Notes under the pieces: model-generated
Told to the model about the DNA's origin: nothing
The model's input: the letters and a program-made list of their open reading frames with translations, nothing else
The model's database searches: none
Part shown: piece after piece, positions 28,403 to 43,504 of the stretch
How positions within the stretch are numbered: the stretch's first letter is position 1
Layout of the letters: each line of letters opens with the position of its first letter
From: Patescibacteria group bacterium
GTDB lineage: Bacteria > Patescibacteriota > Minisyncoccia > Phycocordibacterales > PALSA-1337
Assembly (NCBI GenBank): GCA_018971685.1
Contig: JAGXAG010000001.1
Coordinates: forward strand, 90,396 to 154,395
Direction of reading: 5' to 3'
Length of the DNA: 64,000 nucleotides
Position numbers and translations under genes: made by a program

Positions 28403-29257
28403 ATGAAATCATACCGCCCCACAACTCCATCGCGCAGACATATGACGGTTTTGCCATTCAAGCAGTATTTGACGGCTTCGGAACCGCATAAGCCGCTGAC
28501 CAGAGGTTTCAAAAGGGACATGGGCCGCAACAGCCACGGCCGTATCACCGTGCGCCACAAGGGCGGCGGACACAAGAAACTGTATCGCATCGTCGATTTC
28601 CTTTATGACAAGAAGAATATTCCGGCCAAAGTCATGACCGTGGAATATGATCCGTTTCGGACCGGTTATATCGGCCTGGTTGCTTATAAGGACGGCGAAA
28701 AGCGTTATACGCTTTTGCCCAAGACGATGAAAACCGGCGATTCGTTCATGGTATCGGAAAATGCGGCCATAGAGACGGGCAATAGGTTGCCGCTAAAAAG
28801 TATTCCGGTGGGTACCTTCATCTTTAATATCGAAGTCAGGCCCGGTGGCGGCGCGAAACTGGTCCGTTCGGCCGGTTCATTCGCCCAAGTGATCGCCAAT
28901 GACGCCGGTTATACTCATATCAAGATGCCTTCTACGGAAGTTCGCAAAATTCATGAAAACGCTTGGGCGTCGGTAGGCGCCGTATCGAACGAAGAAAATC
29001 ATTTGGTGCATATTGGCAAAGCCGGCCGCACCCGCTGGCTGGGTATCCGCCCGACGGTGCGTGGCTCGGTTATGAACCCGGTTGATCATCCTTACGGCGG
29101 CGGCGAACAGAGGACGGGACGCGGTCTGCGCCGGTTAAAGACGATGTGGGGCAAACCGGCCGGCAAAGGCCAGAAGACGCGCACGCCGAAGAAATATTCC
29201 AATGTTTTTATCGTTTCGCGCCGCCAAGTCGGCAAGAAGAAGTCCGCGGCCGAATAA
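28403..29257 (+). CDS. rplB: 50S ribosomal protein L2
   Basis: GRITVRHKGGG, EYDP, RPTVRGSVMNPVDHP. Confidence 0.98.
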   Translation: MKSYRPTTPSRRHMTVLPFKQYLTASEPHKPLTRGFKRDMGRNSHGRITVRHKGGGHKKLYRIVDFLYDKKNIPAKVMTVEYDPFRTGYIGLVAYKDGEKRYTLLPKTMKTGDSFMVSENAAIETGNRLPLKSIPVGTFIFNIEVRPGGGAKLVRSAGSFAQVIANDAGYTHIKMPSTEVRKIHENAWASVGAVSNEENHLVHIGKAGRTRWLGIRPTVRGSVMNPVDHPYGGGEQRTGRGLRRLKTMWGKPAGKGQKTRTPKKYSNVFIVSRRQVGKKKSAAE

Positions 29258-29474
29258 TTTTATCTCACCTCGCTATTTTCCCTGAATGTTTGGCCTTTTC
29301 GTCAAAGCAACCAAGAAAGTCATTGAGACGATAACTCTGTATATTGTCGGGTATTATTGACGGCTGTAGATAACGGCATTTGCTTTTCAGGTGGGGGGGG
29401 CGTACTATTAACGCCAGGAATAAAGGGCCAACATCGTAAGGCTCTATTAATAAACTGTAAGTCTATTATTTATC

Positions 29475-31031
29475 ATGAAGAAATCTTTATTTTCATTCGT
29501 TGTTCCATTGGCAGCGGTTTTTGCGTTTGCGGTAACCGTATTCATCCCGGCACCGGCAAGTGCGCAGACCACGCCGATTTGTCCTGCCGGTTACACTTGT
29601 ACGCCCATTAATCCTCAACCCATGAATTGTCCGGCGGGGTATATTTGCACGCCGACAAGCCTGCCTGCGCAAACATATTGCCATACTTTCAATACCAATT
29701 TAGGCATTGGCAGTTCTGGCGACGAAGTAGCCGCTTTGGTAAAAGTTTTGGGTATGGACGGTGAAGCGTTGGGTGTCGGCGGTTACTATAATCAATTTAA
29801 CGAAAATGTCGCATCAGCAGTCTCGTCATTCCAAGAGAAATACTCTTCAGACATTCTTACTCCAGTCGGCTTAACTTATGGCACCGGTTATGTCGGCGCG
29901 TCGACTCGGGCGAAATTGAATCAGTTATATGGATGCGTGACGACCAGCAATCAGAGTTCGCATGTAATATCATATCTTCAAGCGGCGGCCGAAGACAAAA
30001 ATATTATGCATGCCGGAGAACAAACCTGGATTTATGGATCGGGACTTTCTAGCGCTCAATATATAATGATAAACGGTCAAAGTGTGCCGATGTTACACTC
30101 TAGCGATACCTCGGTCTCGTTTTATGCGCCTTCATCGTTGCAAAATGGCACCGCTTCCATTTATGTCGGAGATCAAACTCTTTGGACAAGTAACTCAATT
30201 ACCGTTCAAACTGTAGCAAACGCCGCGAATTCTTCTTGTGCCTCCGGCCAAACATGGAACGGCACGGCGTGCGTAACAACGCAACCTTCAATCACCGTCT
30301 TGAGCCCGAATGGGGGACAGGTTTTCAATTCAGGAGGAACACTTACGGTAAATTGGAGTGCAAACAACATACCTGCGGCAGATTATTATCTATTCGTCTA
30401 CCTAAAGACCAAGCCGGATCAGATACTGGGCGGAACCGTATCCAATACCTATATTCCGCTTATGTTTAGAATCCGAAATGGAACAATGTTGACTTCGTCG
30501 TATACTACCAACATCACTTCGCCAGATACAAAAGGTGGCGGTGTAAGTCCCGGAGCGTATTATATTGAAGTTGATGCCGCTGATGAAAATGGCAATGTAT
30601 ACGCATCCGGAACAAGTAACGGAACCATTACCATTACTCCCCCAACTCCAGTGTCCGCAGTATCGCCCTCGATCACTTCGATTACCCCGACATCCGGCGT
30701 AGCGGGCGGCAAGGTACAGGTGACGCTTTACGGAACGGGTTTCATTCAGGGTACGCAAGTGTCATTCACAGGTCCGGTCGGTCCGTCGGCGACGAATACG
30801 CAAGTGCCGGCGTCGTCGATTTCCGCCGATGGAACCAGCCTGACTGTGGCTATGCCGACAACACTGACACCGGGCACTTACAATGTAAGAGTGATAAATA
30901 CTAACGGCATGAGCGCCAGAGCGGTATTCACGGTGACGCAATCGCCCAGCACGCAAACTTCCAGCATAATGGACGCACTCAGGGCGTATTGTAATAGCGG
31001 AGGCCAGTATTGCGACAGTTCGTGGAGGTAA
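29475..31031 (+). CDS. Secreted protein with CPxGYxC repeats, a peptidoglycan-binding domain and IPT/TIG-like domains
   Basis: Signal peptide; CPAGYTC and CPAGYIC; TGYVGASTRAKLN; SPNGG; PSITSITP. Confidence 0.75.
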   Translation: MKKSLFSFVVPLAAVFAFAVTVFIPAPASAQTTPICPAGYTCTPINPQPMNCPAGYICTPTSLPAQTYCHTFNTNLGIGSSGDEVAALVKVLGMDGEALGVGGYYNQFNENVASAVSSFQEKYSSDILTPVGLTYGTGYVGASTRAKLNQLYGCVTTSNQSSHVISYLQAAAEDKNIMHAGEQTWIYGSGLSSAQYIMINGQSVPMLHSSDTSVSFYAPSSLQNGTASIYVGDQTLWTSNSITVQTVANAANSSCASGQTWNGTACVTTQPSITVLSPNGGQVFNSGGTLTVNWSANNIPAADYYLFVYLKTKPDQILGGTVSNTYIPLMFRIRNGTMLTSSYTTNITSPDTKGGGVSPGAYYIEVDAADENGNVYASGTSNGTITITPPTPVSAVSPSITSITPTSGVAGGKVQVTLYGTGFIQGTQVSFTGPVGPSATNTQVPASSISADGTSLTVAMPTTLTPGTYNVRVINTNGMSARAVFTVTQSPSTQTSSIMDALRAYCNSGGQYCDSSWR

Positions 31032-33862: not shown

Positions 33863-33893
33863 CTACTAAGCACATGGCGATATAATTGTGGTT

Positions 33894-34103
33894 ATGAGTA
33901 AAATAACCATATCAAAAACCGAATATTCAAACCTAAAGAAACAGTCGAAAGCTTATAGAGTTGTCATGGCCAGATTATTCGAGTTGTTGATAAAAGATCC
34001 CGTCAAATCAGTCGTAGACGATTTTCGTAAAATCGGCCTGTATTCTGACGGATTCCTGTCCGATCTGGAAGCGGGATTGCGCAAATCTTCCTACGGTGGT
34101 TAA
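33894..34103 (+). CDS. Small putative antitoxin
   Basis: Short gene directly upstream of a RelE-like toxin; TATAAT 7 nt upstream. Confidence 0.6.
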   Translation: MSKITISKTEYSNLKKQSKAYRVVMARLFELLIKDPVKSVVDDFRKIGLYSDGFLSDLEAGLRKSSYGG

Positions 34104-34111
34104 TCAACGGC

Positions 34112-34363
34112 ATGAAAATTGAACCTCTTCGGAGAGATCTTCTTGAATATTTGAACAGCCACAAGCTTGCCTCCAAATGGAAGAAGTCCGCAAGATTATT
34201 TGAGACTAATGTGCGCCATCCGTCACTTCATGTGGAATTGCTGGAGCCGAAATGGCACGGCATTTATTCTTTCAGGATTGATAAAAAATATCGCGCCCTG
34301 TTTTTCATAGTAGACGGAGCTTCTGCGGAAGTATTTCAGATTACCAATCATTACAAGAAATAA
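34112..34363 (+). CDS. RelE/HigB/YoeB-like toxin
   Basis: HPSL..E.L, IYSFRIDKKYRALF, NHY. Confidence 0.8.
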   Translation: MKIEPLRRDLLEYLNSHKLASKWKKSARLFETNVRHPSLHVELLEPKWHGIYSFRIDKKYRALFFIVDGASAEVFQITNHYKK

Positions 34364-35197: not shown

Positions 35198-36436
35198 ATG
35201 ACTTACAAACATATATTCAATACGGCGATCAGAGGACTGTCGACCAACCGGTCGCGCTCTTTCCTGACGATTTTCGGCATAGTGATCGGCATCACGGCGA
35301 TCATGCTGGTGGTGTCTTTGGGCGCGGGCGCGCAGGATCTGATACTCGGCCAGGTGCAGGGTCTGGGCACGAATACCATAGCCGTTATTCCCGGCAGGGA
35401 ACCGACCGGACCGTCCGATGTGACCGCCCTATACAGCGACTCGCTCAAGGACAAGGACATAACCGCGCTCACCAATAAAGGCAATGTGCCGTATTTGAAA
35501 AGCATCATGCCCGTGGTCTTCGGCGCCGGCGCTTCGTCTTACGGTTCCAATACCTATCAAGTGACCATATTCGGCGGCACCGATCTCGTCGCCGAAGTAT
35601 TCGATCTGCATCCGTCCGAAGGCCAGTTTTTTGACGCCAGCGACGTGCCGTCCCGTTCAAATGTGGCGGTCATCGGTTCCGATGTCGTCGATCACTTGTT
35701 CGACGGGCAAGATCCTGTAGGGCAAAATATCAAAGTAAAGAGCCGGAACCTGCGCGTGGTGGGCGTATTGCCCAAGTCCGGCGGCGGCACTCTCTTCAAT
35801 TTCGATTCTATGGTCATAATGCCGTATACTACGGCGCAGGATTACATTCTGGGTCAGAAATATTTCAGCCGCATAATCATACAAACCGAGACGGATGCGG
35901 AAGTGGCGGTTACGGCCGAGGACATCAAGCTCACCCTACGGGATTCTCACGGGATCACCGATCCGACCAAGGACGACTTTACGGTCCAAACACAGCAGGA
36001 TCTGGCCAACAGGCTGGGAACGATCACTTCGGCGCTCACCTGGTTCCTGGTGGCGGTGGCATCAATCGCGCTTTTTGTCGGCGGCGTCGGCATCATGAAT
36101 ATCATGCTGGTGGCGGTGACGGAACGCACGCGGGAGATCGGCCTTCGGAAAGCGCTGGGCGCGACGGATCGCGATATTCTGTCGCAATTCTTGCTGGAAG
36201 CGGTCTTGCTCACGGCGATCGGCGGAGCGATCGGGATATTCTTGGGGACGGTGTTAGCGTTCGTGATCTCGGTCGGCCTTTCGAAAGGCCTGGGCGTGAA
36301 CTGGCAGTATGTTTTCCCTTGGGGCGGCGCGCTCTTGGGTTTCGGCGTGTCGGCGCTCGTCGGTCTTGTTTTCGGCGGCTATCCGGCCAGCCAAGCGAGC
36401 AAAAAGAGTCCGATCGAGGCGTTACGGTATGAGTGA
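35198..36436 (+). CDS. ABC transporter permease (MacB/FtsX family)
   Basis: GGVGIMNIML.AVTERTREIG, PIEALRYE. Confidence 0.95.
   Translation: MTYKHIFNTAIRGLSTNRSRSFLTIFGIVIGITAIMLVVSLGAGAQDLILGQVQGLGTNTIAVIPGREPTGPSDVTALYSDSLKDKDITALTNKGNVPYLKSIMPVVFGAGASSYGSNTYQVTIFGGTDLVAEVFDLHPSEGQFFDASDVPSRSNVAVIGSDVVDHLFDGQDPVGQNIKVKSRNLRVVGVLPKSGGGTLFNFDSMVIMPYTTAQDYILGQKYFSRIIIQTETDAEVAVTAEDIKLTLRDSHGITDPTKDDFTVQTQQDLANRLGTITSALTWFLVAVASIALFVGGVGIMNIMLVAVTERTREIGLRKALGATDRDILSQFLLEAVLLTAIGGAIGIFLGTVLAFVISVGLSKGLGVNWQYVFPWGGALLGFGVSALVGLVFGGYPASQASKKSPIEALRYE
36373..36436 (+). repeat. Direct repeat, left copy (attL-like): 3' end of the permease gene
   Basis: 64 bp matching 42333-42396; first 45 bp identical, 4 synonymous mismatches. 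Confidence 0.95.
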
Positions 36437-36552
36437 GGCATTGTTCCAAGTTTTCTCTTTCATATAAAATAATAACGGCGATCTTAAAGACGCTTAAATT
36501 ATCCACAGGTAAATCTTAAATTCGGCGTTGTTTTTTTGTTATAATTTGATTC

Positions 36553-38457
36553 ATGAAGAGAGCGATTGTCATGATTTCTTTCGGTTCGGTATTGATTCTT
36601 ACCCCGTTTTTTGAGGTTATGGCGGCTGGGTATGGAGATACCGGTTGGGGGATAACGGCTACGGTTACCAATGCATGGCAAAGCGTAGTATGTACGGTGG
36701 GATCGTGGATGTCGATAGCCCCGGCGTATTGCGGTTATGAAGAGAAAGCGGCCAACAAACCGACAGTACCAAAGACACCGTCATTAAACACCGTCATTTC
36801 CCGTGATTCAATCGGCTCAAGGCAAATCGCCGAACCGGTTCAAACATCACGGTTTTTGTCACCGACGGTGCCGTCTGTATCAGGTAAGGCCGATATCCAA
36901 TCGATAGTGAACGAAGCCGTAGCTGTGGCTTTATCTAAACTCCAGATCCCCGCCAACCAATCGCCAAGTCCCGCCGATATCACCGGTCGCGCATCGACTT
37001 CCCCAACCAATTATGCCAATACTATTCCACCGGACATATACCGTTTTGTTTCCGATCAGGCCTCATCGAACGGTTACAGTGCAGGTCAAGCCGTATCGAA
37101 CAGTGCATCGGCCATAACCTCCGCATATACTTCCGCCATATCAGACGCCGTTACCGGCGGGCTTACCGCCTTCGATGGTTCGACTCTGCATGCGGGTACA
37201 AGCACCTTAGGCCAACTTACGGCAGGATCAACCACACTCTCAAGCCTAAATGTATCCGGAAATGCTGCCGTAACAGGCGCTCTCACTGTCGGTTCTCTGG
37301 TTTCGGGCGGTCAGACCATAGGAGGTAACTTCGGTGTTAGTGGCACGACCACCCTAGCTACTACAACGGTTAGCAATCTATCGGCTTCAACTATGAGTAT
37401 TGGTTCATTGAGCGGTATACTATATGGGAACAATGGGATTGTCGGGACTACCAGTTTGTCCAGTCTCACTTCAAACATTATATCCACACAAGGCAATACT
37501 ATAACTTCAAATATAAACGGTGTACAGGCTAGCGCCTTATTGCCGTATGCGTCGGCTTCGAGCGACGGTTAGGTTTCCACCACCACCCAGTCATTTTCCG
37601 GTAACAAGAATTTCTCAGGATCATTGACGGCAGGTTCGACCACACTATCATCGCTGTCAGTCACAGGTTCGACATCTTTGGCGTCGCTTGCAGTCAGCGG
37701 CGTTACGGCATTGTCAGGTCCTCTTACGGTCTCTCTCGGTAGCCTGTCCGGGTCTGATACTTATTATGATATGAGTAAAATAGCAAATTACAATCAAATG
37801 TCCATAAGCTCCGGACAGATACAACTGTCTCTGGCGTGGACTTGTGGAAGTCACACTCTGGTAGGCCCAGACGGTTTGACCTATGGTACTGTCGTCGGGG
37901 CTGACGGCAACTGCTGGCTGGACAGGAACCTAGGCGCTACGGAAGTAGCCACAGCCTACAACGATGCCAATGCATATGGTTACTACTATCAATGGGGACG
38001 CGGTATGGATGGCCACCAGATATCTACCAGTTTGACCACAAATACTCTATCCTCCACTGACCAGCCGGGCAACAGCAATTTCATATTGGCGCCAAGCTCT
38101 CCTTATGACTGGCGTAGTCCGCAGAATAACAATCTATGGCAAGGAGCGTCGGGAGTAAACAATCCTTGTCCGAATGGATTCCGCTTGCCGACTAACCAGG
38201 AATGGTCGAACCTGGTATCGGCGGCGGGAATTACCGATTACTCAACAGCTTTCAGTTCCTCATTGAAACTAACACTAGCCGGCGACCGCGACTACTCCTC
38301 CGGTAGTCTCAGCCCTCAGGGAGGTTTCGGTCTCTACTGGTCGAGCTCAGTCTCCGGTGCGAATGCTTTCTCCCTGTACTTCAGCTCTTCCGGGGTTAGC
38401 CCTTCGTACTCGTACTACCGGGCCTACGGCTTCTCGGTTCGTTGTATAAAGAATTGA
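36553..38457 (+). CDS. DGR target protein (Ser/Thr-rich stalk plus C-terminal CLec/FISUMP-like variable domain), interrupted by an in-frame TAG at 37570-37572
   Basis: ORFs 36553-37572 and 37624-38457 share one frame; CWLDRNLGA, YYQWGR, NPCPNGFRLPT, YWSSS, GFSVRCIK. Confidence 0.85.
38276..38451 (+). repeat. DGR variable repeat (VR)
   Basis: 176 bp ungapped match to 39001-39176; 19 of 20 mismatches opposite TR adenines. Confidence 0.97.
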
Positions 38458-38486
38458 CAATTTATCAATTTGACAATTAAAAAATT

Positions 38487-39209
38487 ATGGCGCTCTACTA
38501 CACATTGCCGATATACAAATCTAGTTACAAACTTGCTTTCTTGTTGTTCGATGCCTCTACCCATTTTGCCAGAGAGTATAAATATACTGTTGGTCAGCAA
38601 TTGAAAGACGAAGCGATGAAATTGGTTAAAAATGTGTATAGAGCCAATAAAGCTATTGATAAAAATTGTGCCATAAATGAGGCGAGAGAAAATGCGGAAA
38701 TGATACGGCTGATGGTCCGTCTGATGAAGGATTTCAATCAGCTTAGCCTGAAAAAATTCCTGGAAATCAATCTGTGCATAGAAGATGTGTCCAAGCAACT
38801 CACTTCTTGGGGAAAGAGCTTTAGGACAAAATTATCAATACCGCCTGAATCGTCTGTAGCCAGAGCCCAGACGAGCGTGCGGAGCAAATTCAATGGCCCC
38901 CTTGCCTCATCAGGCAAGGAATATCGTCCGGATCACGGATGTGTTTCGCCGTCCCGTACTCATGGGGAAGGTGCGACAAATACAGAGGCCATAATCACAG
39001 TAGCCGGCTACCGCGACAACTCCTCCGGTAGTCTCAACAATCAGGGAGGTAACGGTAACTACTGGTCGAGCTCAGTCTCCGGTACGAATGCTTTCAACCT
39101 GAACTTCAACTCTTCCGGGGTTAACCCTTCGAACACGAACAACCGGGCCAACGGCTTCTCGGTTCGTTGTATAAAGCATTTGCAAATAGCGTATGAAAAA
39201 GTCAATTAA
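38487..39209 (+). CDS. avd: Avd-like four-helix-bundle accessory protein; ORF continues in frame through TR
   Basis: LPIYK..Y, F.REYKYTVG..LK, SKQLTSW; no stop until 39209. Confidence 0.85.
   Translation: MALYYTLPIYKSSYKLAFLLFDASTHFAREYKYTVGQQLKDEAMKLVKNVYRANKAIDKNCAINEARENAEMIRLMVRLMKDFNQLSLKKFLEINLCIEDVSKQLTSWGKSFRTKLSIPPESSVARAQTSVRSKFNGPLASSGKEYRPDHGCVSPSRTHGEGATNTEAIITVAGYRDNSSGSLNNQGGNGNYWSSSVSGTNAFNLNFNSSGVNPSNTNNRANGFSVRCIKHLQIAYEKVN
39001..39176 (+). repeat. DGR template repeat (TR)
   Basis: Copy of VR containing 14 AAY codons, located between the Avd domain and RT. Confidence 0.97.
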
Positions 39210-40377
39210 CGACAACCCGCAACTACTTTTGAACTTGTTCAAGGCATATTATGATGCCCGTAGGCACAAGGGTTTGTCTGCCAATGTTCTGGCTTTTTCG
39301 GCTGATTATGAGAGCAAATTATTCAAACTCTATGAAGATATTCTAGATCGAAGATATGTCATAGGGCCAAGCGTATGCTTCATCGTCAATCGGCCGGTAA
39401 AGCGAGAAATATTCGCCGCCGACTTTCGCGACAGGGTTGTTCATCATCTAATATTCAATTATCTCAATCCTATAGTTGAGAGAGATTTTATAAAGGATAG
39501 TTATAGTTGCAGATTGGGGAAAGGCACTTCTTATGGCGTGCGCAGAGTTAATCATTTTCTGCATTCTTGCTCAGAGAACTATACTCACGAGTGTTGGATC
39601 ATGAAACTGGATATACGAGGTTACTTTATGTCTATGAATAAAGATATTCTATACGGCAAGGTAAAAGAAGTCGTCGATAAGGCGAGAAATATATCTTTTG
39701 ACAAGGAACTCCTCATGTATCTGGTGAATAAAGTTGTATACCACGATCCTGTCACTAATTGTCGTATAAAAGGCGACAGATCAGACTGGGTGGGATTGCC
39801 AAAATCAAAAAGTTTGTTTTTCGCCGAAAAGAACCGAGGATTTCCTATAGGGAATCTCACTAGTCAACTATTCGGGAATATATACATGAATAGGTTCGAC
39901 CATATAATAAAGGAAGATCACAATTTTAAGCATTATGGCCGATATGTTGATGATATGATCTTCGTGCATAAAGACAAGGGGACATTGGCGTCCACGATCC
40001 CGATCGTAAAAAAGTATCTTTTTGAAGAACTTGGGTTGGAATTACATACCAAAAAGATATATTTACAGCCGTCTGCTGTCGGTGTTAGCTTTTTGGGGGC
40101 TTACATAAAGCGATGGTGCCAATATGTCGGAAAAAAGACCAAGACTAATTGTTATACTAGAATCAGTAGGTGGAATTCAGAAGTTAATAAAAACAGCTAC
40201 GACAAGTTTTTATCTTCGATGAATTCATATCTTGGATTTATGAGCCAATACGATACTTATAGGCTTCGCCAGAAAGTCATGTCAAAATTAAGCCGCCAGA
40301 TTGTATCGAAACTGATCATTTCCAAAGATTTTTCTTCGATAAAAATAAATTCTGCAGCGAATACATTACGAACATGA
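39193..40377 (+). CDS. DGR reverse transcriptase
   Basis: FRDRVVHH, KLDIRGYF, GFPIGNLTSQ, RYVDD, SFLG; 394 aa, no endonuclease domain. Confidence 0.96.
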   Translation: MKKSINDNPQLLLNLFKAYYDARRHKGLSANVLAFSADYESKLFKLYEDILDRRYVIGPSVCFIVNRPVKREIFAADFRDRVVHHLIFNYLNPIVERDFIKDSYSCRLGKGTSYGVRRVNHFLHSCSENYTHECWIMKLDIRGYFMSMNKDILYGKVKEVVDKARNISFDKELLMYLVNKVVYHDPVTNCRIKGDRSDWVGLPKSKSLFFAEKNRGFPIGNLTSQLFGNIYMNRFDHIIKEDHNFKHYGRYVDDMIFVHKDKGTLASTIPIVKKYLFEELGLELHTKKIYLQPSAVGVSFLGAYIKRWCQYVGKKTKTNCYTRISRWNSEVNKNSYDKFLSSMNSYLGFMSQYDTYRLRQKVMSKLSRQIVSKLIISKDFSSIKINSAANTLRT

Positions 40378-42326
40378 GAAACAAGCCATCAACAATTCGA
40401 GCGATTGTCACGACGGTTATTATACCAGCAATAGGATTTGCAATACTTTTAGGTATGACGCCAGCCATGGTTATGGCTTCCGCGACCTACTTTTCTTCCG
40501 GTACTGTCAGCTCGACTAACTTACTATCAGGCAGCACAGCATCGTCCATAAACGACTTCTATTACAACTTGTCATCTCTTCCGGGCAACTCAAGTGTTAC
40601 GGTCCAATTCAGCCAAGACGGAACAAATTGGTATTCGGCCGCCGGTACGCTCAACGCTTCCACGAGTATTTCTACCATCGGCGGGGCTACGATCGATCTG
40701 TCAGCTTTGCACTGGTCCGGTTCGTCTTTCTACTATAAGTTTACTTTCTATGCCACTACCGATCAAACCGGCACGCCGGTCATAAACGGAGTCAGAGTCG
40801 ATTATTCGACATCCGGTTCGAATGGCGGCATATTCGCCATAAATAACGGCGGCCACATAGCGGTGGGTACGACTTCTGCCCTGTCGACTCTCGACATAGC
40901 GGGCGGTACAGCCATAGGGACTTATGCCGGCACCGCCGCCGCTCCCAATAACAGTTTGATATTGAGCGGTTTTTTGGGCGTGGGTACTTCTACTCCATCC
41001 AGCAAACTTACCGTGGCGGGAGACGGTTATCTATCCGGCAATCTGACGGTCAACGGCTCGCTCAGCGTGGCTGGTTCTCTATTCCAGATCAACTCTAACG
41101 GAACTTTTACGGCGTCGAGCACGCAAGCTTCGGCGGCTACATCCACCGTATACGGCAATCTCAATGTTACCGGCAACCTGCACGGCCAGACTATTACTTC
41201 GGGCGATCTTGTATTCGCGAACGCTTTCCGGTTCACTGAAGCGCGGCTCGACGGTTCACCACAAGGTATTTTGCTCAAGAATCAGTATGGTTCGACAACT
41301 TTGTCTGTAGATGAGAACGGCAATCTAACCGTTTTGGGCGACATATGTTCCAATGGGAATGTTTCATGTTGGGGCAGATCCATAGTCGATCTGAACAGCG
41401 GCCTAGCTTCTCTGGCTTCATCTACCATGCTTGATATATCCGCCAATGCCGCTTCTACTACGAGGTCGATGTCCGAACTATCTTCAGATATCGACAAGAT
41501 CGACTGGTCTTTGAATCGTGTGTCTTCGAGGTTAGATGCACTGGCTTCATCCAGTCTGACTATGTCCGCTCTGGCCTCGGCCACCGATGCCATGGCCTCT
41601 TCGGCCGGATCGATCTTGGCTTCTTCGACATCGTTCATCCAGAGCGTATCCCAAGCCGTTAACAGCGCCATCCAGTCCACAGGTCAATGGCTTGCGAACC
41701 AAATAACGGTTGCCAAGGGTATCTTTACCGAGCTTACAGCCGGCAAGGCTGACATTCAGACGGCCAATATTCAAACGCTCTGTATCGGCCAGACTTGCGT
41801 GTCAGAGAGCCAATTCAAGGCGATGTTGGCGCACGAGAATGTGACGCCGGTCCAACCATCCCCGATGTCGGCGCAGAGCAGTTCGACGAACATTACGACT
41901 GATACTGCGACAGCTCCCGCTGCCACGACCGCTTCTACGACAATGCCTGCGGCTGTGTCGGCAGGTACCTCTATAATTGCAACTTCATCCACTGACCGGG
42001 CAGATCAGACAGCGACCACTTCTGTAGGCGTTGTTCCCGCGGCTTCTACGACATCAGCCACGATCATGGTTTCGGAAGCTTCCGGAACATCGACTGCCGC
42101 CGCGGTATCAGAGACTTCAACCACTTCAACGGCAACGGTTTATACAACTCTGCCGATCATGAGTTCGACCACTACGGTATCTGCCCCGGTTGAACCGGCG
42201 GCATCGTCCGTTTCCGAATCGTCGACCACGGCGGTCGACCGTGTTTCCGCGGCTCCCACACCAATCACAGATATGACTACCACCGGCACCGCTCCTGCGC
42301 AGGCGTCAACTTCAGCGGCCCACTAA
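40374..42326 (+). CDS. Secreted fibre-like Ser/Thr-rich protein, translationally coupled to RT
   Basis: ATGA overlap with the RT stop; signal-like N-terminus; GVGTSTP..KL.V.G repeats; LCIGQTCV; S/T/A-rich tail. Confidence 0.8.
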   Translation: MRNKPSTIRAIVTTVIIPAIGFAILLGMTPAMVMASATYFSSGTVSSTNLLSGSTASSINDFYYNLSSLPGNSSVTVQFSQDGTNWYSAAGTLNASTSISTIGGATIDLSALHWSGSSFYYKFTFYATTDQTGTPVINGVRVDYSTSGSNGGIFAINNGGHIAVGTTSALSTLDIAGGTAIGTYAGTAAAPNNSLILSGFLGVGTSTPSSKLTVAGDGYLSGNLTVNGSLSVAGSLFQINSNGTFTASSTQASAATSTVYGNLNVTGNLHGQTITSGDLVFANAFRFTEARLDGSPQGILLKNQYGSTTLSVDENGNLTVLGDICSNGNVSCWGRSIVDLNSGLASLASSTMLDISANAASTTRSMSELSSDIDKIDWSLNRVSSRLDALASSSLTMSALASATDAMASSAGSILASSTSFIQSVSQAVNSAIQSTGQWLANQITVAKGIFTELTAGKADIQTANIQTLCIGQTCVSESQFKAMLAHENVTPVQPSPMSAQSSSTNITTDTATAPAATTASTTMPAAVSAGTSIIATSSTDRADQTATTSVGVVPAASTTSATIMVSEASGTSTAAAVSETSTTSTATVYTTLPIMSSTTTVSAPVEPAASSVSESSTTAVDRVSAAPTPITDMTTTGTAPAQASTSAAH

Positions 42327-42332
42327 GAGTGG

Positions 42333-42396
42333 CGGCGGCTATCCGGCCAGCCAAGCGAGCAAAAAGAGTCCGATCGAAGCCCTCCGGTATGAGTGA
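42333..42396 (+). repeat. Direct repeat, right copy (attR-like): orphan permease 3' end
   Basis: Encodes GGYPASQASKKSPIEALRYE-stop, identical to the permease C-terminus. Confidence 0.95.
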
Positions 42397-42682
42397 TTGA
42401 AATTTCGCGCGATGTCAGCCGATAAACCATTCGTGGGCCGGCACGATCTCTATTTTTGCGCCATCGAGTTCAATAACCTCTTTCCAGAAATTTATTATGT
42501 CTCTTATTTTTTCGTCGTTTTTTGTGGTCATGTTTAAGTCAAGTATATGTTACTAAATACTATAAAATAAGTCAAGTATACATGACTTATTTGTAAATCT
42601 CTCAAGAAATCCAAGTATTAAGCCATTTTTTGTCATTTTTTTATCGCAATTAATTAACAGTGACTATTATTGTGCGCATCAA

Positions 42683-43504
42683 TCAGTTCACCGAAGGCAA
42701 TACGATCTTGAAAGTCGACCCTTTGCCGGCGCCGGGAGAAGAGACCTCGATCCGGCCGCGGTGGCGGCGGACGATGGAATCGGCCAAATAGAGGCCGACG
42801 CCGAAACCTTCGGTATCAGCCGATACGGCGTTTTTGCCGCGGAAGAATTTCGAAAACAGGCGGGGGAATTCTTCCGGAGAAATGCCGATGCCTTGGTCCG
42901 AGACAGTGATGGCCGCTTTTGCGCCAATTTTGGAAACATCGACGCGCACACTTTTGCCGGGCGGAGAGTAAAGGCGGGCATTGTCAAAAAGGACCTGCAG
43001 GGCGAATTCCACGCGCGCCTTATCGACTTTGACATAAATCGGTTCGCGGTCGCATTCGACGGAAAAGAAAATATTTTTTTCATGAAAAGAATCTTTCGCC
43101 AAACCGGCGACGCGGCGCGTGAGTTCGCAGAGGTCGGTCTTTTCGAACAAATAAGCCGCCCGGGCCAGGCCGTCTGAGTCGGCCAGTTCGACAAGCGTAC
43201 CGGTCAGATCTATCAATTGGCGATTTGCTTTCGCGATCTGGCCCAAGCTCTCCAGTTTGTACGGATCCTGTTCCGCGGAGGCCATGCTCTCGATGAGCCA
43301 TTTGACCTGCGAAAGCGGTGTCTGGAATTTGTGGGCGATGATGGTGATAAACTCCTCTTTTAAGTCCTCATTTTTCCTCGAGGAGAGATTTAGCATGTAA
43401 ACAAGAAGAAAAATGAGCGCAATCGCCGCGACGAATAACACCATGACCAATGTCGAATGGTCGGCTATATAGCTTTCGATGGACAAGACCGCTTCGGCGC
43501 TCAT
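42683..43504 (-). CDS. Orphan membrane-anchored histidine kinase
   Basis: AHKFQTPL H-box, DNA..Y, DQGIGI, G.GVGL; start MSAEAV 6 nt after TATAAT. Confidence 0.88.
   Translation of the reverse strand: MSAEAVLSIESYIADHSTLVMVLFVAAIALIFLLVYMLNLSSRKNEDLKEEFITIIAHKFQTPLSQVKWLIESMASAEQDPYKLESLGQIAKANRQLIDLTGTLVELADSDGLARAAYLFEKTDLCELTRRVAGLAKDSFHEKNIFFSVECDREPIYVKVDKARVEFALQVLFDNARLYSPPGKSVRVDVSKIGAKAAITVSDQGIGISPEEFPRLFSKFFRGKNAVSADTEGFGVGLYLADSIVRRHRGRIEVSSPGAGKGSTFKIVLPSVN

Follow-up and report, generated by a model that had tools for sequence, protein, structure and literature searches.

A diversity-generating retroelement of a patescibacterium with a structured leader RNA upstream of its template repeat and predicted priming from the leader

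We analysed a diversity-generating retroelement (DGR) in a 64,000-nucleotide stretch of DNA from a Patescibacteria group bacterium (GenBank assembly GCA_018971685.1, contig JAGXAG010000001.1, positions 90,396 to 154,395; hereafter the window, whose numbering is used throughout, with features on the plus strand unless stated otherwise). The element, at 36553-40377, consists of a target gene ending in a variable repeat (VR), an avd gene, a template repeat (TR) and a reverse transcriptase (RT) gene. The DGR as such is ordinary, and so are its Tyr/Ser bias and its broken target. Judged by comparative sequence analysis, the locus illustrates well an undescribed RNA architecture of the leader-first kind, in which a structured RNA upstream of the TR pairs with the TR 3' end, and priming from this leader is predicted. 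Taken as a whole, we read the locus, with moderate confidence, as a VR-rewriting DGR whose target, predicted to be a surface protein with the VR at its tip, is now cut and whose RNA would be a leader-first rearrangement of that of Bordetella phage BPP-1, priming upstream of the template.

A structured leader RNA pairs with the end of the template repeat

The leader RNA (38841-38999) is predicted to fold into a 5' hairpin (38841-38882), a single-stranded pairing strand and a three-stem multiloop closed by the helix 38893-38898/38987-38992, and its folding stability corresponds to a z score of -3.5. We retrieved 43 metagenome loci with the leader motif, which together with 14 earlier loci and the window made 58; avd and a TR were present in 55 of these (three lacked avd), and 40 remained after removal of near-duplicates. 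Alignments contained 39 loci, one with a frameshifted avd (L099) being left out of them and of the tree. Compensatory change was seen at 22 of the 39 predicted leader pairs, and in the window sequence two G-C pairs of the closing helix are compensatory. This helix, the candidate for a stop helix, starts one base after the pairing strand, closes 9 nt before the TR (39001-39176) and is 100% paired.

The leader matched the Rfam motif RT-7 (RF03028) over its full length (model positions 1-191; 44.2 bits, E 4.6e-8). As the gathering score is 116.8, the window leader is a relative of RT-7 and not a member, and none of 14 related loci reached that score. A true RT-7 member (160.9 bits) is found on a viral contig (L143), where it lies between avd and the TR of a DGR. 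Across viral contigs the strict leader motif was found in none and an RT-7-derived pattern in four, of which three by chance. Model R1 matched 26 of 40 other loci, but only one, weakly, of 23 host-genus loci with distant RTs. The TR end is separated from the RT start by 16 nt, which leaves no room for a spacer of the BPP-1 type; a structured spacer of about 140 nt is absent between TR and RT, and 36300-42800 contains no RT-10-type match. Results of a promoter and terminator scan were near chance.

The pairing strand of the leader (38884-38891) has its partner at 39176-39183, at the boundary of TR/VR homology, in the strand equivalent to the IMH* (IMH, initiation of mutagenic homing). When every leader-versus-TR column pair was scanned, this stem, a helix of 8-9 bp, came out on top. 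Over the 39 non-redundant loci, 98.2% of cells pair, with changes on both sides at two of seven pairs (in four and two loci). When three helices were tested together, the paired fraction was reached in none of 500 shuffles, and slid controls gave 25-44%. Distant loci from several phyla, with RTs 45-56% identical, show the same pairing in 125 of 144 cells versus 100.6 in shuffled sets (0 of 20,000 reaching the observed value); in that test the anchors were chosen blind to complementarity and gave 16 distinct pairs from 21 of 26 loci, five loci having no anchor and two mis-anchored rows being retained. The RT-7 member on the viral contig pairs in the same way at 8 of 8 positions. The base that follows the pairing strand is A in 37 of 40 loci; in the window, 38884-38891 is the candidate primer strand and A38892 the candidate branch point.

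According to the available text of bioRxiv 2023.10.23.563531 and PMC6182149, the BPP-1 spacer (Sp) contains, in order, an Avd-binding stem-loop, a primer strand pairing with the TR 3' end, a stop strand pairing 5' of the TR, a stem-loop, unpaired adenines and RT-binding parts. The leader repeats this order with a hairpin, the pairing strand, a link, the strand of the stop-helix candidate, a stem-loop, unpaired As and further stems. In the predicted arrangement of its parts, the RNA corresponds to a circularly permuted BPP-1 RNA.

The mutation pattern is that of an ordinary DGR

The locus is a DGR with an ordinary mutation pattern. The TR and the VR (38276-38451) align without gaps over 176 bp at an offset of 725, and the counts given in the initial annotation proved exact: the repeats differ at 20 positions, 19 of which are TR adenines (11 A>T, 4 A>G, 4 A>C), the remaining one being T39009/G38284. 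Changes affect 13 of the 14 AAY codons of the TR (to Tyr six times, Ser four times, and Pro, Phe and Leu) and both ACG codons, with adenines elsewhere in the TR unchanged. The TR contains 43 adenines, and the probability that all 19 mismatches in 39010-39176 land on 42 TR adenines by chance is 9e-14. VR and TR part company from 38452 and 39177 onward, in keeping with an IMH/IMH* pair. A scan for further VRs, proposed with the initial annotation, returned none in the 750,657-base assembly (with adenines as wildcards, TR and VR scored 125/125 and the next best site 63).

The Tyr/Ser bias had been taken to suggest selection for a binding surface. Among 28 relatives with a TR/VR pair, Tyr (113 of 452) and Ser (71 of 452) are the two commonest products of AAY codons, and unselected bRT of BPP-1 converts AAC to Tyr in 14%, Ser in 12% and Asp in 10%, no more than 8 residues reaching 1% (available text of PMC12875486). 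As the bias is seen across the family and stems in part from the enzyme itself, it does not demonstrate selection, and the earlier estimate of about 15^14 variants becomes a ceiling. AAC codons of the relatives gave Tyr in 75 of 250 cases, above the 14% of the unselected enzyme, and Ile in none of 250. The Tyr excess and the absence of Ile leave room for selection or for another enzyme bias, a single VR being insufficient for the question.

Of the weak hairpin annotated after the VR, the arms AATTGA-7-TCAATT are present, but the segment folds no better than shuffles (z -0.2 and -0.4) and is better read as an 8-nt tandem repeat, in three copies at 38454-38477, that is common to relatives. The GC-rich hairpin that several relatives add after the VR was not found here; such hairpins occur in 34% of DGRs, and hence are not defining (available text of PMC5758913).

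Avd and an RT with LTSQ and YVDD motifs are adjacent, as annotated at the outset: the former matches PF22296 (52 bits, cut-off 40), and the latter (39193-40377; 394 aa, intact, 38% GC) matches PF00078 with GNLTSQ and YVDD in its translation. The Avd domain (about 38487-38840) has an isoelectric point of 9.5. The best solved relative of the RT is BPP-1 bRT (E 6.5e-27), the next RTs following at 4.8e-6 or weaker. Close RT relatives adjoin TR/VR pairs, and the records of relatives are labelled candidate phyla radiation (CPR), Bacteroidota and other phyla. Of 92 other genomes in the host genus, 55 have matches to the RT; among the matches listed, one is in this subfamily (66%) and the rest are at or below 46%. 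A quick RT tree and an Avd-plus-RT tree, both of DGR-type sequences without non-DGR outgroups, had weak backbones. Identical RT proteins occur in two bins labelled Patescibacteria and Gastranaerophilales (L023 and L024), pointing to recent transfer or mis-binning. The initial description of a complete, BPP-1-type DGR stands for the machinery, which is intact, and for the mutation pattern; it does not extend to the target, interrupted by a stop 235 codons before the VR, or to the RNA layout.

The avd frame runs through the leader and the template repeat

The avd open reading frame (ORF) (38487-39209, 240 aa) encodes the Avd domain and then continues without a stop through the leader and the TR, in the frame of the VR, to overlap the RT start by 17 nt. 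Eight of the 40 loci end this frame after reading through the TR, another eight continue into the RT as one ORF, and 24 stop earlier. We consider it more likely than not that translation of the avd frame through the TR is maintained. Where the avd frame enters the leader, it is open to the TR in 16 of 22 loci, versus 3 of 17 otherwise (Fisher p 0.001, for kin that are not independent); leader lengths in open loci are 152, 155, 158 and 167, and 14 of 23 stop loci are out of that register. Single-ORF Avd-TR-RT loci form two separate clades (99% support), and 12 of 55 longer homologues have Avd and RT domains in one chain.

The open frame could instead be accidental, the TR being stop-free by descent and the leader kept as RNA, with no extended Avd and no Avd-RT chain; we find this credible, if somewhat short of an even chance. 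The open-frame counts, the leader register, the two clades and the single-chain homologues just described argue against it. On its side stand the linker "peptide", conserved equally where avd stops, the in-frame TTG or GTG codons ahead of the RT in fused loci, and the statement of Wu et al. that the TR is untranslated (available text of PMC5758913). Several further counts weigh against maintained translation: the open avd-TR frame is lost in the 24 of 40 loci that stop after Avd, the two fused clades alone give P of about 0.07, 32% of column-resampled leaders are also stop-free, and the window RT groups with a locus whose avd stops. If translation through the TR is real, a single Avd-linker-TR-RT polypeptide would break both the arrangement of 1 RT to 5 Avd and the rule of the untranslated TR. 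Two Avd-plus-RT chains of about 800 aa (P0006, P0013) are longer than the 620-660-aa fusions and possibly represent another fusion type.

The element sits in an island at the end of a permease gene

The cassette forms a 5,960-bp island bracketed by a 64-bp direct repeat of a permease 3' end. The left copy (36373-36436) is the 3' end and stop of a MacB/FtsX-type ABC permease gene (35198-36436), and the right copy (42333-42396) is, on the weak evidence of codon usage, probably the host's original permease 3' end; the copies are identical over 45 bp and then differ at four synonymous positions. The island ORFs are the target, avd, the RT and one Ser/Thr-rich gene. GC content at third codon positions is 0.42-0.46 in avd and rt versus 0.64-0.71 in host genes. 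In two other genomes (G013 and G016) the site is empty, and the permease directly adjoins a kinase gene.

The island likely entered by recombination in the permease 3' end, the enzyme being supplied in trans, and we slightly prefer such fixed-site integration to uptake assisted by homology. Outside the island the host genome (G000) has two tyrosine-recombinase and eight serine-recombinase matches, ten in all. A second genome (G091; L147, C1 about 29250-30970) has the same permease 3' end duplicated, 56 bp being identical, without an integrase; the duplicate encloses a different gene of 435 aa, which from its N-terminal motif we take to be purD-like. The start points of the duplicated ends in the two genomes are no more than about 6 nt apart, which is what a fixed crossover site would produce. 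Against site-specific integration, there is no recombinase match within the island (C11:126832-132791). The contigs of the sequencing runs break at the 64-bp repeat, hence are silent on excision or an empty site. These runs were available as contigs only, four of seven were compared, and all seven are possibly sources of the assembly. In one run the island had a depth of 13.7 versus 17.8-20.5, and in the other three the depths were much the same; excision would not be visible in contig depth.

The 64-bp repeat might also stem from homology-assisted uptake from a related strain, or be the relic of a tandem permease, and not reflect site-specific integration; this is possible, although we incline to doubt it. 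Uptake would suit an island that lacks an integrase, a ComEC-type competence gene in the genome, and a slot after the permease that varies among genomes, with unrelated DGRs lacking the duplicate in G017 and G077. It fits less well with the shared start of the duplicates and with the recombinases encoded elsewhere in the genome, and the 45 and 56 bp of perfect identity speak against an old paralogue.

Unrelated TR-(avd)-RT DGRs adjoin the same efflux operon in three genomes (G017, G077 and G063; loci L017 3980-6617, L148 and L149), which suggests a variable slot near the ribosomal protein cluster. The eight large serine recombinase matches, spread over contigs C1, C3, C5, C11 and C12, lie in a genome of 750 kb. 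Just beyond the right repeat, a 38-codon ORF on the minus strand (42416-42532) has an end that presumably resembles the C-terminus of a CPR serine recombinase. A pair of genes for 71-aa and 83-aa proteins (33888-34363) is inserted in the efflux operon with a glycoside phosphorylase, and the 83-aa protein weakly matches toxins of RelE/HigB-type toxin-antitoxin systems.

A model for priming upstream of the template

In the model that we propose, one transcript would carry avd, leader, TR and rt; Avd would be bound by the 5' hairpin and the RT by the multiloop. The long-range helix would serve as the template:primer duplex, and the 2'-OH of the nucleotide at or beside A38892 would prime, as SpA56 does in BPP-1, yet with the topology of a retron (primer 5', template 3'). 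If the long-range helix is indeed the template:primer duplex, priming would be upstream, as in retrons. The enzyme would halt at the helix that closes 9 nt before the TR, the complementary DNA would replace the VR, and the avd frame through the TR would couple RT translation to Avd.

The element could still be an ordinary DGR with BPP-1-like downstream priming. The leader would then serve only as a template clamp and a protein-binding site, with the primer supplied by the short interval behind the TR or by the rt coding sequence itself. BPP-1 itself primes from Sp, 3' of its TR, its upstream:downstream duplex being the stop duplex and not the primer, and 207 of 278 Avd-bearing DGRs have predicted downstream elements (available text of bioRxiv 2023.10.23.563531). 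In the loci studied here, however, conservation falls immediately past the 8-nt pairing strand, and the first RT match begins 14-39 nt past the TR in 30 of 39 loci. The partner strand begins at the TR/VR boundary, the expected place for the template side of a primer duplex, and a separate helix closes just 5' of the TR, where a stop duplex is expected. We regard downstream priming as unlikely.

Other points weigh against upstream priming by an active element. The window helix is mismatched at a pair that 38 of 39 loci conserve, and in most loci the helix contains an A-C mismatch. The long-range helix has the topology of the BPP-1 stop duplex and may be a clamp rather than a primer, and the 5' end of rt may itself contain RNA structure. 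The motif used in part to select the loci contains the pairing strand, and the loci are related to one another rather than independent. No VR variants were found in the contigs of the four runs, contigs being prone to drop rare variants.

Extending upstream priming beyond the window, we tentatively propose, as a nearly even call, a broad clade of Avd-bearing DGRs, spanning CPR, Bacteroidota and a viral contig and marked by RT-7-like leaders, whose circularly permuted RNA would prime upstream with retron-like topology, and a CPR sub-lineage of which would translate its TR.

The target gene is interrupted by a stop codon

The stretch 36553-38457 is not a single ORF; an in-frame TAG at 37570-37572, inside a repeat motif and upstream of the VR, splits 339 from 294 codons. 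The 5' part (36553-37572, 339 aa) has a hydrophobic, putatively signal-like N-terminus and a Ser/Thr-rich stalk, ends at the TAG and has no Pfam match. The 3' part (37573-38457, 294 codons) carries a Fib_succ_major, C-type-lectin-like domain (PF09603, 40.2 bits, cut-off 33.9) with the VR in frame at its end, and 13 homologues share the C-terminus SVRC.K. The repeat motif broken by the TAG is continuous in a homologue (P0059), and the target, read through the TAG as X, gives one continuous alignment with the intact target of locus L028 (766 aa; 39%). Possible restarts at TTG 37624 and ATG 37771 lack an export signal. The stop is present in the whole-island contig of each of the four runs compared, with 0 differences.

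A fold model of the VR domain from 14 sequences was poor (predicted local distance difference test 47.5, versus 31 from a single sequence); its structural matches were weak (best Z 4.7), the top rows including TvpA, Mtd and C-type lectin domains. Foldseek gave no match for the VR domain at E 0.001, and no hidden Markov model match was found in the PDB. Elsewhere, a frameshifted homologue of the VR domain (L016 3625-4231, G001:C4) lies amid long surface-protein genes, with no RT match in 14 kb around it.

With the nonsense change, an exported full-length target is likely no longer made; the element is probably still able to mutate its VR, yet without a displayed product in this population. We rejected recoding of the TAG, which is a normal stop in this genome (it terminates 62 of 339 long ORFs), and none of the genome's 46 tRNAs is a TAG-reading suppressor. 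That the target still functions, through readthrough or as two proteins, or that the stop represents an off-state that can be reversed or an artefact of the consensus, is improbable: open frames are kept in both halves, the two in-frame restarts are at hand, every other part is intact and the runs compared may be the assembly's own source, but the standing of TAG as an ordinary stop, the absence of a stop at this point in five homologous targets compared (L019, L022, L023, L028 and L029) and the position of the TAG outside the VR, beyond the reach of retrohoming, all speak against it.

A gene for a Ser/Thr-rich protein follows the RT

A gene for a 650-aa Ser/Thr-rich, probably secreted protein (40374-42326) overlaps the RT stop. 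Its N-terminal domain follows the RT in 10 of 20 related loci with enough sequence (11 of 21 including the window). The protein has no Pfam match, and its N-terminal domain no named structural match. A signal-like start and the conserved N-terminal domain recur at L019, L022, L023, L029 and L080, and the later part of the protein matches the C-terminal region of a giant protein of 2,187 aa on contig C4. In L019 a 186-bp repeat is common to the target and the downstream gene. Genes for giant surface proteins may be divided by the cassette, leaving a front half tipped by the VR and a back half that is restarted.

Novelty and implications

A literature search within papers free of subscription found no upstream or permuted DGR RNA and no Avd-RT fusion described, and neither occurs in the available portions of 10.1101/2024.11.15.621889, 10.64898/2026.09.22.753630, PMC10053308 and PMC8867640. 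How DGRs prime has been worked out in a single phage, and predicted downstream RNA parts are missing from 71 of 278 Avd-bearing DGRs, roughly a quarter (available text of bioRxiv 2023.10.23.563531). A leader with covarying pairing to the TR 3' end offers a base-level model for such DGRs and would give the orphan motif RT-7 a role. If they work as predicted, a template at the 3' end of a leader-first RNA and the natural single-chain Avd-RT genes of relatives could both simplify DGR mutagenesis tools.

Comparison with known systems

The element resembles the BPP-1 DGR (mtd-avd-TR-Sp-brt; PDB 8ub7 series) in its order target-avd-TR-RT, in its Avd and in its adenine-specific AAY changes; bRT is the best PDB match of its RT, and the RNA parts have the same apparent order. 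Its layout is architecture B1 of Wu et al. 2018, as is that of BPP-1. BPP-1 has a 140-nt structured spacer 3' of the TR and 20 nt of avd 5' of it, whereas in the window element the structured part, about 160 nt, precedes the TR and 16 nt lie between TR and RT. Unlike BPP-1, the window element has no GC-rich hairpin after the VR, its avd frame runs through the TR, and its target is chromosomal and interrupted. In the Fib_succ_major/CLec2 VR domain at the C-terminus of its target it is like category 'd' DGRs of Wu et al. 2018, such as the Legionella DGR. DGRs are enriched in CPR (available text of PMC8144416), and 90% of a surveyed CPR set are arranged TR-(avd)-RT with avd reversed, in contrast to avd-TR-RT here.

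The leader shares with RT-7 a full-length match, the same hairpin, single-stranded strand and multiloop, and the same place beside the RT, and unlike RT-7 members it scores below the gathering threshold. Only RT-10 is assigned to DGRs in the main text of Weinberg et al. 2017, in which many RT motifs are speculated to be parts of retrons. The window RNA is like a retron noncoding RNA (msr-msd; available text of PMC8632793) in its 5' scaffold, 3' template, complementary ends and predicted 2'-OH priming. It differs from retrons in that its RT resembles the DGR bRT, its template is a protein-coding repeat and not an msd hairpin, and the candidate branch base across its relatives is mostly A and not G.

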